A stretch of DNA of 62,427 nt, the filler included, from Actinomycetota bacterium (lineage in GTDB: Bacteria; Actinomycetota; Actinomycetes; JAKEEW01), in assembly GCA_046725875.1 (NCBI GenBank). It is 4 parts of 4 records of this genome, joined end to end, with 100 filler letters (N's around TTAATTAATTAA, not from the genome) between each part and the next. Parts side by side here need not be neighbours in the genome. Positions count along the whole stretch, not along the records: positions 31,202 to 37,615 come from JBKOZJ010000011.1; 3 more parts are not named here. One strand, 5' to 3'. The notes under the pieces are model-generated. The model was given only the letters and a program-made list of their open reading frames with translations, was not told the DNA's origin and ran no database searches. Of this stretch, positions 31,102-37,715 are shown piece after piece; positions within the stretch are counted from its first letter, which is position 1; the number at the start of each line of letters is the position of its first letter. The translations under genes and the position numbers were made by a program.

Positions 31102-31201
31102 NNNNNNNNNNNNNNNNNNNNNNNNNNNNNNNNNNNNNNNNNNNNTTAATTAATTAANNNNNNNNNNNNNNNNNNNNNNNNNNNNNNNNNNNNNNNNNNN
31201 N
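31102..31201. other. artificial contig spacer
   Basis: 44 N + TTAATTAATTAA + 44 N. Confidence 0.98.
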
Positions 31202-31379
31202 ACGCCGCCACCTCGAACATGTTGACGGTGACTTGCTGCCCCTCGTAGAAGACGGGCCTTTGAGTCGAAGCGCCGTTCGGGCTCCCCTGCGCGAGCGCGG
31301 TGCCGGCCGTGAGGGCAACGAACAGGCCCCCGGTGACGAGGAAGGCTCCGATCCTCACTGTGACTCTGTTCAGCCGCAT
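31202..31379 (-). CDS. secreted protein, N-terminal part (cut by contig end)
   Basis: Signal peptide ending ALA-Q; GGGAGG RBS. Confidence 0.65.
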
Positions 31380-31784
31380 GCTGAACCTCCCTTGTGTCGA
31401 AGCGGGACCTTCCCGCCCCGTATTGGGGACTACGTGCGGGTTCGTATCAAGGTTCACTGAAACGAGGTAAACGCTCGGCGACCAGGTTCCCATTCATTTC
31501 TGAAGTCGACAGGATGGTCTGCACCTGATCAGTGGCATCGGGGCGCCGAGTCAACTTCGGGAAGGGGATCACCCGCAGCAACCCTCCGCTGGACGAGGCT
31601 CAGCACACCTAGGTGTGCCGTTCTCGATCTCGCGATCAGTCCGCTGCCGACGCTCGGTAGTGCCGGTTATCGCGTGCCCGGCGGAACACGCGCTCATGCC
31701 GCTCCTGGTGTGCGGTCCTGCCGCAGGTTGCGGTCTCCGGTTGCCGCGCACCGCCTTGCCGGCAAACTTTGGGTCGGCGGGAGC

Positions 31785-31826
31785 CGTGAGGGATTCCGGA
31801 GGTGTGGGTCAGCAGATGTCGCACTC
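31785..31826 (-). pseudogene. serine hydrolase (beta-lactamase family) micro-relic
   Basis: Isolated VRHLLTHTSGIP motif without the flanking domain. Confidence 0.35.
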
Positions 31827-31927
31827 GGGCCGGAGGCCGGCGCCTTGTGCGCGATGCGAATGGCGGAGCTGTGGCATGACGCTGGCATGACGAACCGCGT
31901 TCCCGAACCGGACCCTGCCCAGCACGG

Positions 31928-32305
31928 CTAGGAGCCGGGGGCGCTGTAGATGGTGTCGGCGGGGGTGCCGACGTTGATGTGGAAGGTTTCTAGGCAGCCG
32001 ATCTTGTCGCCGGTGAAGGTGTATAGAAGACGAAGGCAACCCGACCGGCCTCTTTGAGGGTCATCTCCCCGGTGCCGACGGCGACCACGGTGTGCCCTCC
32101 TCGATCAGCCGGTCGAGGTTCAGCGTCGGGCTGCCGACGTCGGCGTCGTTCTCGATCTCGGCGTCGAACGCCTCCTTGCCGTGCAGCGTCGTGTAGTCGT
32201 GTAGCACCCACACGACGTCGTCGGCCAGGCAGGCCAGGATCGCCTCGTGGTCGGTGCGTCGGAAGCCTCGATGTAGGCCTCCACGACCGCCTTGTGCGAT
32301 GCCAT
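31928..32305 (-). pseudogene. NTF2/SnoaL-like gene with three frameshifts
   Basis: Reassembles as MASHKAVVEAYIE/FRRTDHEAILACLADDVVW...LIEEG/TVVAVG...FVF/YTFTGDKI. Confidence 0.8.
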
Positions 32306-32511
32306 GCGCTCGGCCCCCTCACCCGTGGTTCGGCGCGCCGTTCAGGTTCGCCTGGCAGGTCTCGATGCGGCTGATCTTGTCACAATAGGCGGCAGGTGGC
32401 ATGGCTCTACGTCCGAGCTTGGATGACCGGACCGCCCCCATCTACTGCGATCAGCTGGCCGCCCGCATGGCCGTGACAGGGGCGGGTAGCGGGGTCTTGG
32501 AGGTGATCGAC

Positions 32512-32625
32512 ATGGTCTCTCGAACTGCTCGCAATCGGACCATCTGGATTGTCGTCGCTTTCGTCGTGGTGGCCGTCGTTGTGGCGCTCATCTTGACGGC
32601 AGGCGATGGCGGCGGAGGTTACTGA
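32512..32625 (+). CDS. 37-aa single-TM small protein
   Basis: GGAGG RBS; MVSRTARNRTIWIVVAFVVVAVVVALILTAGDGGGGY. Confidence 0.6.
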   Translation: MVSRTARNRTIWIVVAFVVVAVVVALILTAGDGGGGY

Positions 32626-32705
32626 ATCAGGCCCGGCTCACTCTCTCACGCCGCCTGTGGCTGTGGGCTTCAATCCGATGATTGGCGAACGCAGCGCGGC
32701 GGTAC

Positions 32706-33540
32706 TCATCTGATGGACGCGACAGGCAGCGTCAGCGTTCGCTGGGGTGCTGAGCCGGGAGGAGCGGCAGGCGGCGTTGGATTCGTTCCCGGGGCCGCGC
32801 GACCGGGTTGTGCGGGGTCTCGTGCTGGGCCCTCACCGTTGATCGTCCCGCTCGCGGGCTCATCGGTAAGGGTCGCGTCCGCCGGTGGCGTCGGGCCGCT
32901 CGGGGTGACGAGTAGCCTGCGCCAGGCCTCGGCGAGCCATTGCCCAAACCGTTGCGGTGTCCAGCCCCGGTCGTGGACGAGCAGGATGTAGTATTCCGCG
33001 GCGTTCATGCTCCACAGGACGTCGGCGACCTCGTCGAGGGTGAGCCCCGCGCGCAGCTCGCCGGTGGCCGCGAGATCGGAGCTCGCGCATGTTCCGGGCG
33101 CGACGGTCGGCGACCTGGGCCCATAGCTCGCCGAGTTCGGGGTTGGCGGTGGCCGCCTCGCGTAGCGCGAGGAACAGGGGAGCGAGCCGTTGGTGGATCG
33201 CCGCAATCGTCGAGGCGTAGACCTCGATCTTGTCGCTTGCCGTGGCCATCGATCGGATCTGCCGGACACTCTCGCCTTCCCCCACAGGCACGGCCTGGTC
33301 CTGGCCGGCGATCGAGGTTTCGATCAGCTGTCGGAACAGCGCGGGCTTGCGGCCGACCGAGGCATACACGGTGTCCACGGCGACGTTGGCCGCTCGGGCG
33401 ATCCCGGCGATGGTCGTTGCGGTGTACCCGTTGCGCAGGAACTCCGAGGGTGCCGCGGTCAGAATCGCCTGCCGGGTGGCGGCCGCCGCCGCGACCCGCC
33501 GAGGCGAGTGGTAGGCACGCCGGTTGACATCCTTCGTCAT
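32706..33540 (-). pseudogene. TetR-family regulator, frameshifted near 33078
   Basis: HTH YTATTIAGIARAANVAVDTVY in one frame; C-terminus DLAATGELR...LVHDRGWTPQRF in another. Confidence 0.82.
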
Positions 33541-33621
33541 TCGGCCTAGTGTACAGGTATTCATCCGAGATAATTTCGGGCGAATATGGATCGACCGCCA
33601 ACATGAAAGGAGGCGGGGTCC

Positions 33622-33912
33622 GTGACATACGTGTTCACCCAGGACGCACCGATCAGCGCAGAGGTGTACGGCAAGATCGCCACGAAGGTCGGCAGTGAGC
33701 CGATGAAGGGCCTGATCGTGCACGTCGCATCCAAGACGACTGACGGCAAGCTCCACTACTTCGACGTTTGGGAGTCGAAGGAACTATGCGACCGGGCATT
33801 CGAGCGGCGCATCAGCCCAGCGACCCGGCGGGTGCTCAGCGACAGCGGCGCCACACCGCTCAACGAGACCGAGCGACAGGTGCTCGACATCGTCGACGTT
33901 CGCCGCAGCTAA
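33622..33912 (+). CDS. small hypothetical protein divergent from the TetR gene
   Basis: AAGGAGG RBS; GLIVHVA...FDVWESKE suggests a dimeric alpha-beta barrel (ABM-like) fold. Confidence 0.75.
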   Translation: MTYVFTQDAPISAEVYGKIATKVGSEPMKGLIVHVASKTTDGKLHYFDVWESKELCDRAFERRISPATRRVLSDSGATPLNETERQVLDIVDVRRS

Positions 33913-33984
33913 GCAACCCCCCGATGGGGAGGGCCGGTCCGCCTGCAGGTGGACCGGCCCTCCCCATCGCCGCGACGTAAGAGG

Positions 33985-34075
33985 ACGGGGTTTGAGATCT
34001 TCATGAGGCGAGTCGGGGGGCTCAAGGACACCCCGCCCACCGACATCCTGCAGGCCGTGCGGCTGGTCGCGGAGA
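33985..34075 (+). pseudogene. NarL-type response regulator fragment
   Basis: LKDTPPTDILQAVRLVA matches the end of a receiver domain; no intact ORF. Confidence 0.4.
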
Positions 34076-34332
34076 AGAACTCGACCTGGTGCTGCCCTTC
34101 CCGGTTGAGCTACTGCGGTTTCTCGACCAAGCCACGAGCGGGTGGCGCCCGTCGCCGCCGGCGTCGGAGTCCGGCCCTGCCGGGCCTTCCGCCGTGCCGT
34201 CGAGCGAGCCGAGGCCGCCCGTCTCGCCCGGGTCGGATACTCCCACCGGCGATGGGTCGCCGGGGGGTCCTGATGCGCCATGGGTGGACCAGTACGACGA
34301 GCTTGCCGGCTCCGCGGTTTTGCTCCGTGGAC

Positions 34333-34360
34333 CTGCGGGGGTCTGTTGCATTCAGCGATC
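34333..34360 (+). repeat. solo copy of the element end found at 55578-55605
   Basis: CTGCGGGGGTCTGTTGCATT(C/G)AGCGATC, 27 of 28 identical. Confidence 0.75.
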
Positions 34361-34492
34361 CGAGCGATGCTGGCTAGGCCGCAAAGGCCATTCGGGTTGC
34401 GGGTGAGAGGTGCGCCTGGAGGTAGCCTTCGGGCGAGGAGCCGACCGTTCCGGGACGTCGGCTGACTCCCATCTCCGCGGGGCCCATGTGAC

Positions 34493-34714
34493 TCACAGCA
34501 CTGGACCACGCGGCGACACCTCAAGGGCGGCGACACCCCTTCCGTACAGTACGACGAGCCGGTCGCCATGTCGGGTGCGAAGCAAACCAGAATCCTGGGC
34601 GAGCGTTGAAACAATGTGCTCAATGACGTCGTCTGCGTCGCTCGTGGGTTCGTCGAATGTGACGTCTATATGATCCCCGCCGGTAAGCAGGACGCGCAGC
34701 ACAATCTCTGCCAT
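34493..34714 (-). CDS. small hypothetical protein
   Basis: 73 aa, globular composition, TAGGGT 9 nt before the ATG (3 nt before the upstream GTG). Confidence 0.6.
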   Translation of the reverse strand: MAEIVLRVLLTGGDHIDVTFDEPTSDADDVIEHIVSTLAQDSGLLRTRHGDRLVVLYGRGVAALEVSPRGPVL

Positions 34715-34905
34715 GACCACGCACCCTAGACGCCTAACGGCACAGCCGGCACGGCGGCGACCGCCTCGGGCCCGGAGGTGCTGGCAGCCCTCAACCTCCC
34801 GGCCTGGTCGTCCGTGGATAACTCCGCGGCCTGCGCAGATGCTGCCGTTCGGGCCGGCCCGACTCGTGCGTCCGCAGCTCGCTCCGGCCGATCACGCGAC
34901 CTGCC

Positions 34906-35094
34906 CTACAACCGCTGCACCCGGCGCAGGAACCCGCGCGCGGCCAGGAAGTCGGCCAGCGACGGGCGGTGTTCCTCGCATGCCAGCCAGATCTTCTCCC
35001 GCTCCGGCGGGTGGATCTTCGGGTTGTTCCAAACCACCGCGTACGACGCGGTCGCGCCGCAACCCCTCGCCGAGCAGACCAACGGCTCAGCCAT
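34906..35094 (-). CDS. conserved small actinobacterial Cys/His protein, possibly zinc-binding
   Basis: CSARGC...WNNPKIH...RxKxWLACEEH...L.ARGF. Confidence 0.8.
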   Translation of the reverse strand: MAEPLVCSARGCGATASYAVVWNNPKIHPPEREKIWLACEEHRPSLADFLAARGFLRRVQRL

Positions 35095-35207
35095 CGGTGG
35101 TGAGCCTATGCCGCCCGGGGGTCACGCAAGCGCTTCCCCCCGCTACGACCGCTGGCGCCCACCGATGCCGTCGAGTCCCAGTCCGCGTCGCACCGGCGAC
35201 TTTGACG

Positions 35208-35749
35208 GCAGGGTCGGCCGCACGGCGAGGTTCCTGGTGAGCAGGTCCTTTTCCGTGCGGCCTCCCACCGAACCGGACGGGCCCGTTTCCGGGCATCCGG
35301 CTCTCCAGTGACCTATGCCGTGAATTAGCGTTCACGGAGGACACCCAGCACCGTTTCGGCGTTCGGCATTTCGCATACCTCCCGGCTGTCGGTATCCGAT
35401 CACCTGTTCCCCTTCGCCCTGTGGACGGCTTTCCCGTCCTCCCCGGCAGGTCGTTACTACTGCGACTACTACGGGAACTCCGTCGCCGTGGGGCTCGCGC
35501 CCGGTAGGCGATCCCACGTTCGTCCTCGCCGTACGTGTCAGCGTGACGTAGGCGGCCCACTCATCTCCTTGAATGCCCTTGCTGGACATCGCTCCACGCC
35601 CCGGAGGTTGCGCCGACCGACATACCAGGCCGACGCAGGGCGTGGCACCGGTTTCAGGCGTCTTTCCGGTGGACGGGACGTTGCGTCTCCTGGAGATTAG
35701 GCTTCAGGCAATCCAGCTTTCGCCATATCACGCGGGTCCCTCAGCGCAC
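35208..35749 (-). ncRNA. ORF-less (internally deleted) group II intron
   Basis: 5' GTGCG at 35749; 34-nt domain V GAGCCGGATGCCCGGAAACGGGCCCGTCCGGTTC (35270-35303); domain VI ending CCGACCCTGC; 14-codon RT stub MPNAETVLGVLRER* (35325-35369). Confidence 0.88.
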
Positions 35750-35919
35750 CGCCCCCTACGCCTGGGCACGGCCGCTGGTTTCCTGGCATGCCCTTGTCCC
35801 CTCTAGGCTTTCGGCCTCAGGTCAGCCATCAGACCCAGGAACCTCCCTCCAAATTCCTCCCAGCGGAGCTGGGGATACAGCAAGGCGCCTCGCGGCGCAC
35901 TAGGTCCCGTCCACGTGCC

Positions 35920-36035
35920 AGCGGTCGCCCACGTACAGAGAGCAAGGACGCCAGCCGACGGGACCGGTGGCACACCGCTCGGTTCAAGGCCCTGGCCGAC
36001 GGACTGGGCATCGTGGTTACCAAGGACCCGGGCGT
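35920..36035 (+). pseudogene. relic of a SprT-like gene typical of actinobacterial integrative elements
   Basis: VAHV/KDASRRDRWHTARFKALADGLGIVVTKDP resembles KDTSRQGRYHNxRF...ELGL. Confidence 0.45.
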
Positions 36036-36053
36036 CCGCTGCCCCTCTGGCGG

Positions 36054-36212
36054 TGTGGCATGACGGCTGGCATGACGAACACCGTTTGCCCGGATCGTGG
36101 AGTGCTATCAGTGCGCTGGGATGTGGCATGAGTGCTGGTAGCGCGCTTGGAGCGGTGCAGCGGCGTCCTCGTAATGCGTAGGTCCGGGGTTCGACTCCCC
36201 GAGGCGGCTCCA
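36054..36212 (+). mobile_element. att site: 3' part of tRNA-Thr(CGT) (36168-36212) preceded by TGGCATGA repeats
   Basis: CTCGTAATGCGTAGGTCCGGGGTTCGACTCCCCGAGGCGGCTCCA; no acceptor 5' strand or D-arm upstream. Confidence 0.8.
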
Positions 36213-36245
36213 ATCAAAGCCGCAGGTCAGAGAGTACCGGGCCAC

Positions 36246-36325
36246 TCAGGCATGCACGCTCTGTCTTGAGATGCCAAAGCGGGCGCCGACCTCCACCACC
36301 GTTGCGCCGGCTAAAACCGCCCGGC
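36246..36325 (-). mobile_element. IS481-family transposase N-terminal HTH remnant
   Basis: AVLAGATVVEVGARFGISRQSVHA* with a stop where Trp is expected. Confidence 0.6.
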
Positions 36326-36709
36326 CGCATCCAGACGCTGCTCGCCTCCGCGGCCTCTGACTCGAGGTCCGGCTCGCGAGTCCATTCTGAAATTGCCGCC
36401 CGGCTCGCCGCGGATGCTTCAGGACCCACCACGGGTCTGCAACATGTTGCACAAGCCAACGCAGCGACCTCTTGGACACGAAGATGTCACGTTCGCCGAA
36501 GGCTCGGATCAATCGCCGCTCGGCGACATCCACCGGCTTCCCACGCAGCTCCCGCTTGAGGCCGTCCACCACCGACTGTATGCAAGACGCGAGGTCAACA
36601 GCGTAGTCATCCAACTCATCCACGATCGCAGTATCTAAGCGAGCGCCTCCCGGTCGAGAACCCGTTCGCCAAACTGCGCTGTCCACGGCAGATGCGGGCG
36701 TTGCGAGGC

Positions 36710-37150
36710 TCAGCCGATGCGCTCGGCCAGCGAGACGATGATCCCTTCCGGCCCCCGGACGTAGGCCATCCGCCAAGCGCCCTCGTACTCGCCGATGCCA
36801 CCGACGAGTCCGTAGCCCTCGGTAGCTGCCCAATCGACAGCCGCCTGCAGGTCATTGACCTCGAAGGCCACGTTGCGCAATCCCAGCTCGTTGGCCATGG
36901 CGGCCGGTGAGCCCGGCACGGAGTCGGGTCGGACGAAGCTCGAGAGCTCCAGGCGGGTGCCATCGTCGGGCAGCTTCAGCATGACGATCTCGGTGCGGGA
37001 GTCGGGAATGCCGCAGACCGTCTCCAAGAACTCGCCCTCGACGAACGTCCTGCCCTCGACCTCCAGGCCCAGCGCCACGAAGAAGCCGGTCACGACGTCG
37101 AGATCTGCGACCGTGAGGCCGACGTGGTCGAAGCGTCGTACATGTGACAT
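36710..37150 (-). CDS. VOC/glyoxalase family protein
   Basis: FDHVGLTVADL, RLELS, GLRNVAFEV, YVRGPEGIIV; GGGAGG RBS. Confidence 0.92.
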   Translation of the reverse strand: MSHVRRFDHVGLTVADLDVVTGFFVALGLEVEGRTFVEGEFLETVCGIPDSRTEIVMLKLPDDGTRLELSSFVRPDSVPGSPAAMANELGLRNVAFEVNDLQAAVDWAATEGYGLVGGIGEYEGAWRMAYVRGPEGIIVSLAERIG

Positions 37151-37615
37151 AGGCCCGTCCTCCCGTCGTCGTATCGACCGTGCATCCGCCACGGTAGGCG
37201 TTCTCAATACCTCTCGTAGCGGGACCTCCGCAAACGCACACCATCAGCGGCCATGAGAGTGCTGGTGTAGTCCCCCAGGTGGGCAGGGTGGCCAAGGCAG
37301 TCCTCTAGCCGTGCCGTTGTCTACGGCACGACGCGCGTGGCGGGGGATTCGCCGGGGAGGCCAGGGCCGTAGGCCGCTTTCGACGGTTGAACAGGGGTCT
37401 GCCCGAGGAGCTTGCCGTCCGCGTCGTAGGCGCGGGCCGATGCCGGTGTGTCGAGTGGTAGGGAGGTGACCGCCGCACCGGTCGGATCGAGATCAACCGG
37501 GCGCACCTGGCCGTCGATAACGAGCTCGGCTCGTGCGGCGTTTGCCGGGGCGATTACCAGCAGGGTTGTGATATCGGGCGCCGGGTGATCGCCTCTGATC
37601 CAGAGGGCGTACGGC

Positions 37616-37715
37616 NNNNNNNNNNNNNNNNNNNNNNNNNNNNNNNNNNNNNNNNNNNNTTAATTAATTAANNNNNNNNNNNNNNNNNNNNNNNNNNNNN
37701 NNNNNNNNNNNNNNN
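37616..37715. other. artificial contig spacer
   Basis: 44 N + TTAATTAATTAA + 44 N. Confidence 0.98.

Follow-up and report, generated by a model that had tools for sequence, protein, structure and literature searches.

The window, that is, the whole stretch of DNA that was analysed (62,427 nt), includes at positions 31202..37615 a contig of 6414 nt bordered by N spacers (31158-31201 and 37616-37659), which comes from an assembly of 197 contigs that is 89% complete. On its minus strand, from 35900 to 35208, this contig carries a genuine ORF-less group II intron of 693 nt, which lies in a remnant of an IS6-family transposase gene:

35901..35932, minus strand: 5′ exon island of an IS6-family transposase gene, 29-32 nt, codons VGDRWHVDGT followed by TA of a Tyr codon
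35208..35900, minus strand: whole ORF-less intron, delimited by homology with full-length copies and by an uninterrupted IS6 gene of the same genome
35896..35900, minus strand: true 5′ end, GUGCG, aligned with GTGCGCC of the full-length copies L016 and L018 and of most of the 80 loci fetched
35193..35207, minus strand: 3′ exon island of the same IS6 gene, 15 nt, C of the Tyr codon followed by VKVAG, after which IS6 homology stops

The intron, its boundaries and its target

A search with the Rfam model for group II intron domains V and VI (Intron_gpII, RF00029) gave a match of 54.7 bits, against a gathering score of 40, over model positions 1-77 of 77 at 35305..35208 on the minus strand; the element therefore reads right to left in window coordinates. 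The group-II-D1D4 models, searched over 34500-36500, gave no match at E values up to 10; only the first of the two Rfam searches proposed in an earlier interpretation made from the DNA alone (the sequence-only reading) was thus positive. An ORF-less group II intron, as proposed there, was the right kind of element, as indicated by the RF00029 score and by the folding of six domains (below), but the length of 542 nt given for it falls 151 nt short.

The boundaries were located by comparing a longer query with four full-length copies of the same family (L016-L019). For three independent copies, homology sets in at window positions 35903, 35901 and 35899 instead of 35749, so that by blastn and MAFFT it starts at 35899-35903 and ends at approximately 35212. 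In the MAFFT alignment, the full-length copies all begin with GTGCGCC and the window has GTGCGCCGCGAGG at 35900, where a second GUGCG (35900..35896) directly follows the IS6 exon ...GGGACCTA. The exon junction, GACCTA joined to CGTCAAAG, is found in this genome in an IS6-family transposase gene that has no interruption, and because the bases flanking each junction differ on either side, both boundaries are unambiguous. The 3′ terminus set by this empty site is GC (35209..35208) rather than AY, as had been recognized from sequence alone; in a comparison of termini, GUGCG is present at 35900, and G, U or A is found as the penultimate base among ORF-bearing members of the family. Both ends of the intron are therefore present, as claimed, with the 3′ end correctly placed but the 5′ end at 35900 instead of 35749. 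An intron of 542 nt that starts from the GUGCG at 35749, with GGGGGCG as the end of its 5′ exon, is practically untenable, for although GUGCG does occur at 35749..35745, the 151 nt upstream of it share approximately 80% identity with the 5′ termini of independent copies from other genomes and form covarying domain I helices, one of which has this GUGCG in its 3′ strand, and IS6 exon sequence adjoins 35900. The GUGCG at 35749, inside domain I, is an internal coincidence.

The last 25-32 nt before 35900 are 87-96% identical to five other places in the same genome; IS6-family transposase genes run through the insertion point at all four of these that were inspected, and the fifth is without a locus. 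One such uninterrupted gene (L037), which carries PF13610 (DDE_Tnp_IS240, 8e-44), reads ...GGCGACCGGTGGCACGTGGACGAGACCTA directly followed by CGTCAAAGTGGCCGG..., and its protein reads ...HRVGDRWHVDETY followed by VKVAGRWVYLYRAVDQ.... In the window, ...GGCGACCGCTGGCACGTGGACGGGACCTA is separated by the intron from CGTCAAAGTCGCCGG..., with the Tyr codon split into TA and C, and the insertion interrupts the transposase exactly at ...VDGTY/VKVAG...; the target sequence at the 5′ side is GTGGACGAGACCTA, continuing as CGTCAAAG. A tblastn search of the whole contig with the IS6 protein (E up to 10) returned only VGDRWHVDGT and no other IS6 piece, a repeat search found no convincing flanking direct repeats or target duplications, and the joined exon frame has no credible start, being transposase debris and no gene. 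The description of the surroundings as apparently non-coding was in this respect partly right, although the flanks are a remnant of approximately 47 nt of an IS6 transposase gene.

Only positions -32..+15 of the IS6 target flank the intron, which is about the size of a homing site and oddly short. Also on the minus strand, 113 nt past the 3′ end of the intron, there is a 62-codon ORF (MAEPLVCSARGC...; 35094..34906) with no Pfam hit.

Ribozyme structure and exon recognition

A consensus structure was computed with RNAalifold from six natural ORF-less copies of 681-711 nt (the window intron, L043, L055b, L061b, L068b and L103b), aligned by reference. It comprises six domains with 214 pairs, and 97.4% of cells are paired:

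35514..35895, minus strand: domain I, from the consensus of the six ORF-less copies and its pair counts; includes 35749..35745
35483..35511, minus strand: domain II (short), from the same consensus fold
35406..35478, minus strand: domain III, including the GGACGGGAAAGCCGUCC hairpin, from the same consensus fold
35307..35404, minus strand: domain IV stub, consisting of an arm with the RBS GGGAGG and a start codon, a 14-codon RT remnant and a closing hairpin
35270..35303, minus strand: domain V, 34 nt, matched by RF00029, with an AGC triad, a GAAA loop and a CC bulge
35210..35267, minus strand: domain VI, extended, with an unpaired GA and the candidate branch A at 35214, from the consensus fold and the alignment of relatives

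Both sides have changed in 53 pairs (compensatory pairs); none of 500 shuffles attained this number (21 ± 3.1), and slid controls gave 2-7. The window intron keeps 205 of the 214 consensus pairs, and the other five ORF-less copies keep 204-211. The sequence-only reading had held that a domain I that could not be folded would speak against the intron; domain I folds, with covarying helices. The same reading had correctly described a complete domain V (35303..35270) with its AGC triad, GAAA loop and CC bulge, an A located 7 nt from the end in domain VI, which is the unpaired A at 35214, and a DIII-like GGACGGGAAAGCCGTCC hairpin, which is a real helix within domain III.

When the 5′ 575 nt of 58 copies were aligned, the window intron deviated at 3 of the 244 columns that are conserved in at least 95% of copies and ranked 34th of 58, which indicates no more decay in the window intron than in ORF-bearing members. 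Decay was considered as an explanation of the CC bulge in domain V and of the GC terminus, an idea that was dropped because ORF-bearing members have both: the bulge is also found in the full-length copies L101, L113 and L077, and the penultimate G in the full-length copies L084, L049, L101 and others. The GA that precedes the basal CCC of domain VI is common to the window intron and its nearest relatives. The ribozyme looks intact, with the unpaired A35214 as the candidate branch point of a lariat.

The elements that would recognize the exons are located in domain I as follows:

35676..35680, minus strand: EBS2, CGUCC, pairing 5/5 with IBS2 GGACG at exon positions -12..-8
35619..35624, minus strand: EBS1, UAUGUC, pairing 5/6 with IBS1 GACCUA, with a U.C mismatch at -3
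35625, minus strand: candidate delta G, the base 5′ of EBS1, facing C(+1)

These assignments come from covariation between the loops and very different exons across the family, for which 42 rows were examined, four were dropped for alignment gaps and 38 were scored. The 6-nt loop of EBS1 forms on average 5.4 of 6 pairs with exon positions -6..-1, and the 5-nt loop of EBS2 forms on average 4.4 of 5 pairs with positions -12..-8. The delta and +1 bases pair in 27 of the 38 copies, with both columns being nearly all G and C. The pairing of a CGCCUAC loop with GGGGGCG, which had been suggested from sequence alone, has to be abandoned, since GGGGGCG is intron sequence and the covariation places EBS1 at 35624..35619 and EBS2 at 35680..35676. 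Because EBS1 and EBS2 match the flanking exon, the intron sits at a site that its own RNA specifies, as expected of reverse splicing and retrohoming.

An 11-nt perfect complement, CCGUCCAC (35669-35679 against 35904-35914, exon -14..-4), was also considered as EBS2 and was set aside for the family register CGUCC, because it partly overlaps a conserved stem and CGUCC is tandemly duplicated. It constitutes an alternative, longer EBS2/IBS2 register that stems from the tandem CGUCC.

The parent family and loss of its ORF

When the 542 nt of the sequence-only reading were searched against 61 related genomes, seven matched. Several of the matches are split, with query positions 10-422 at one place and approximately 427-506 located 1.5-1.7 kb further, which identifies them as full-length introns; the search for an RT-encoding parent that had been recommended was in this way successful. 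In a wider sample, 13 of 401 genomes of the class matched, and an invariant 20-mer of domain I occurs in at least 122 stretches of a species-representative collection, nearly all of them Actinomycetota by record title, from which 80 loci were fetched. The copies sit in several transposase families, including those of the IS110 type (Transposase_20; L016), the ISL3 type (L018) and the IS4/5 type (L057).

In L016, domain IV contains a 595-aa ORF with RVT_1, Intron_maturas2 and AI2M-like HNH domains. Its protein scores 259 bits on TIGR04416, below the model cut-off of 300, and its best solved match is LtrA of Ll.LtrB (PDB 5g2x; 372 bits over residues 23-587), whereas IIC and IIB proteins reach at most 132 bits, over the RT part only. 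The ML protein class goes with IIA RNA, according to Table 1 of the available text of PMC4424553. By this protein match of the full-length relatives, the family appears to be LtrA-like (ML protein, IIA-type RNA), a membership that falls short of proven. The LtrA-like family is common and widespread in Actinomycetota, and the element at 35900..35208 is in all likelihood a Δ-ORF (ribozyme-only) derivative of this family of mobile group II introns.

Compared with L016, the window intron is without positions 717-2451 (the deletion lies between 716 and 2452), which hold the ORF of approximately 1.7 kb. What remains in domain IV consists of two overlapping features:

35369..35325, minus strand: RT remnant, GGGAGG, then ATG, 13 sense codons and TAA, reading MPNAETVLGVLRER and a stop
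35337..35318, minus strand: closing hairpin CCGUGAA-CGCUAA-UUCACGG, perfect, with the deletion junction in its loop

The remnant MPNAETVLGVLRER matches MQSAETVLDVLRER... of the full-length relative L016, in agreement with the earlier description of an RT gene reduced to an RBS and 14 codons with a stop 21 nt before domain V. Also retained are a few nucleotides from the end of the ORF, around its stop; ORFs overlapping the intron have no Pfam match, and in domain IV there is only the 14-codon remnant. In full-length copies, the same two hexamers lie approximately 1.7 kb apart and form a helix that closes the ORF loop. After two rows had been dropped for alignment gaps, 30 of 35 full-length copies could form five or six of the pairs in this 6-bp helix, which varies in a compensatory manner: it is CCGUGA/UCACGG in 13 copies, GCGUGA/UCACGC in six and UCGUGA/UCACGA in one.

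The window intron is not the only short form. Six of the 80 loci hold copies that match the window across the deletion junction, and there are at least six further ORF-less copies, of 681-711 nt, on five contigs of four assemblies:

L043: ORF-less copy, 693 nt
L055:2500-3184 and L061:3303-3987: ORF-less copies of 685 nt each, nested in domain III of another family intron
L068 and L069: two 681-nt ORF-less copies at different sites of one contig
L103: ORF-less copy, 711 nt

The twintrons in L055 and L061 come from two contigs of one Solirubrobacterales assembly and share the same insertion place; the outer intron of L061 is itself ORF-less. The deletion junctions of the ORF-less copies differ by a few nucleotides, and in a FastTree phylogeny of the 5′ parts (midpoint root, support values unread) these copies fall at five separate places beside full-length copies, which points to at least five independent ORF losses. 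A published description of the ORF-less forms of this actinobacterial family was not found in a non-exhaustive literature search.

Two further observations concern the family. A copy of 986 nt (L092:2199-3184) has a partial deletion of the ORF and may be an intermediate toward the ORF-less state. L043, L055, L061, L068, L069, L100, L103 and others, ORF-less copies included, begin with AUGCG or CUGCG rather than GUGCG, a first base that is unusual for group II introns; these are mostly from Solirubrobacterales, and the same target is found with G or A (L118 and L100).

Mobility, alternative explanations and known systems

Among sequencing runs, the highest share of the sampled words (0.27) was found in X1, another metagenome, whose Logan contigs were compared with the intron. 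One record of this run (277 nt) covers 35205-35358 with two differences and a 3-nt gap in the stub loop and bridges the deletion junction; it continues with 126 nt unlike the window and has a 30-letter loose end that on the minus strand, after CGT, encodes VKVTGRWAY (IS6) and whose first 15 nt differ from the 3′ exon of the window at four places. Another record (346 nt) covers 35329-35674 with two differences. An intron approximately 99% identical to that of the window, in a diverged IS6 copy, would be best explained by homing of the ORF-less form, on thin evidence from short contigs, a depth of approximately 6-7 and the consensus of a 30-letter loose end. The exact deletion junction gave no match in metagenomes with either a 27-mer or a 20-mer, runs X2 and X3 contain mainly family-level pieces, and the one true RNA run that was compared (X20) contains only family-level pieces that are 88-95% alike. 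The proposed search for other short copies thus succeeded in other assemblies and in run X1, but in the genome of the window the intron remains single.

This genome contains one intron copy and one domain V in all. Neither the RT/maturase protein of a relative nor TIGR04416 gave a match in the assembly, which is 89% complete; the same TIGR04416 search gave three matches in a related genome as a positive control. Repeats such as full-length introns often stay unassembled, and with 197 contigs and 89% completeness the single copy and the lack of an RT match are weak negatives; a hidden full-length sibling in this organism is possible. The cognate IS6 sites are empty at all four places inspected. 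Given that no RT gene was found, that the copy is single and that equally good IS6 sites are empty, the copy in this genome is probably stranded and non-autonomous, though structurally sound.

The intron would have arrived by reverse splicing and retrohoming as an RNP. Lacking a protein of its own, it would need the RT/maturase of a related full-length intron in trans, and this protein would be bound at the retained domain IVa-like arm for efficient splicing and movement; DIVa is the critical region for protein binding in IIA introns, as stated in the accessible part of PMC2882425. On this view, the present copy would be a ribozyme that still looks intact within mobile DNA that is decaying, and it would leave host genes unaffected. 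Mobilization in trans, which was one of the two mechanisms suggested in the sequence-only reading, is the best supported, by RT-encoding parents in relatives, a site matched by the EBS elements and a near-identical copy elsewhere.

A less favourable view of the same facts is that the ORF-less copy is a dead relic, past splicing and moving, which decays together with its IS6 target. This would fit a single copy with no RT/maturase found in the assembly, the survival of only about 47 nt of the target gene, the U.C mismatch in the EBS1/IBS1 pairing and the empty cognate IS6 sites, and non-mobile derivatives seem not to last long in bacteria, according to the available portion of PMC4424553. It is nevertheless unlikely, since mutation of the conserved columns does not exceed that seen in ORF-bearing members (rank 34 of 58), the fold retains 205 of its 214 pairs, and the approximately 99%-identical ORF-less copy at another IS6 site argues for recent activity of the same lineage.

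Very improbable, by comparison, is a protein-independent ribozyme kept by the host in the manner of C.te.I1, which might process the leader of the small gene 113 nt downstream. The failure to find an RT/maturase in the genome, the intact ribozyme and the 62-codon ORF on the same strand (35094..34906) are compatible with this idea; for the stand-alone ribozyme that the sequence-only reading had offered as its second mechanism, the analysis brought nothing in support. The flanks are transposase debris and not a host gene, the intron was not found at the same locus in relatives (the matches in 7 of 61 and 13 of 401 genomes are all at other sites), the retained arm with the RBS and start codon suggests protein dependence, and the genome is incomplete. 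Still less probable is an assembly artefact, in which a chimeric metagenome contig was joined through the repeated intron: the contig is short (6414 nt) in a 197-contig assembly, but the two flanks are halves of a single IS6 site that fit together in codon phase, and a join of this kind would not explain why IS6 homology ends 32 nt away on one side and 15 nt away on the other.

An engineered Δ-ORF derivative of Ll.LtrB from Lactococcus lactis is mobilized by LtrA in trans. LtrA matches the protein of the full-length relatives over its full length, with RT, maturase and HNH domains present in the relatives. In Ll.LtrB as in the window intron, 1 nt separates IBS2 from IBS1 on the exon, the branch A, a candidate in the window intron, is close to the 3′ terminus, and the RBS and start codon are in the domain IV arm. 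The actinobacterial intron differs from Ll.LtrB in that its deletion is natural rather than engineered, its host belongs to another phylum and its targets are transposase genes; in addition, it has no match to the Rfam D1-D4 models, and the delta-delta′ pair, present in 27 of 38 copies, is unproven.

The nearest precedent is provided by the ORF-less TeI3 introns of Thermosynechococcus elongatus (Mohr, Ghanem and Lambowitz 2010, PMC2882425, in the sections available), which resemble the present case in a deletion of approximately 1.5-1.7 kb in domain IV (approximately 1.5 kb, in DIVb, in TeI3), in N- and C-terminal remnants of the RT ORF and in good EBS/IBS pairing with the flanks; TeI3 introns are mobilized in trans by proteins of related introns, and twintrons occur in both families. 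TeI3 is, in contrast, a IIB/CL-type intron of a cyanobacterium, whereas the family described here is LtrA-like and IIA-type by the protein match and resides in Actinomycetota. A single deletion led to 17 copies of TeI3 in one genome, as opposed to at least five separate losses, with slightly different junctions, across genomes in the actinobacterial family, and only one copy, with no protein donor detected, is present in the genome of the window.

Bacteria seldom contain ORF-less introns, which are nearly always found beside related introns that encode the protein, with C.te.I1 of Clostridium tetani as the sole exception in the available text of PMC4424553; a genome-wide pipeline counts such introns (PMC8919778, in the part available). 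C.te.I1 is likewise ORF-less in a genome in which no gene for an intron-encoded protein was found, but that genome is finished and the intron links coding exons and uses alternative 3′ splice sites (PMC4424553, same text), whereas the genome of the window is 89% complete and the exons are transposase debris. The nesting in L055 and L061, with homing into related introns, is reminiscent of the nested ORF-less introns of Methanosarcina acetivorans (Dai and Zimmerly 2003, as cited in the accessible parts of PMC4424553 and PMC8919778), which are archaeal and of other classes; the copy in the window itself is not nested.

The window intron adds a well-bounded natural Δ-ORF intron of the LtrA-like lineage. 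Together with its relatives, it indicates that in one actinobacterial family the ORF was lost at the same domain IV helix on no fewer than five separate occasions and that the ORF-less forms continue to enter new sites, both in IS genes and within other introns. These introns offer natural material for defining the minimal RNA that a IIA-type RT/maturase can mobilize and for studying the origin of non-autonomous retroelements; the element is selfish DNA in decaying mobile DNA, and a host function is not expected. A rather speculative and doubtful extension is that the LtrA-like family repeatedly spawns miniature non-autonomous introns (680-710 nt) when the ORF loop collapses at a single conserved helix of domain IV, for example as the RT jumps template across the helix base, and that transposase genes and other introns in different classes of Actinomycetota are subsequently colonized by them. 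On the same speculation, the island at -32..+15 could mean that the intron travelled with short exon flanks, for example through reverse transcription of an unspliced precursor or through recombination, a route of which no description was found in the available parts of PMC4424553, PMC2882425 and PMC8919778.

Two other features of the contig were recorded. At 36056-36232 there is a repeat of approximately 180 nt, with two more copies in this genome near contig ends (C1:133-306 and C72:298-481; 72-75% identity), which on the minus strand resembles the T-arm and acceptor fragment of a tRNA and may be an attachment-site or tRNA-derived repeat; the Rfam tRNA model matches the plus strand at 36141-36209 with a subthreshold score of 17 bits, and no tRNA gene was predicted by ARAGORN in 35900-36500 or in the related repeats L034 and L035. 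At 32706-33756 on the minus strand, a TetR-family regulator seems to be split over two frames, with TetR_N in a 298-codon ORF (33756..32860) and a C-terminal-looking part in an overlapping ORF (33269..32706), which may reflect a frameshift, a pseudogene or an assembly error.
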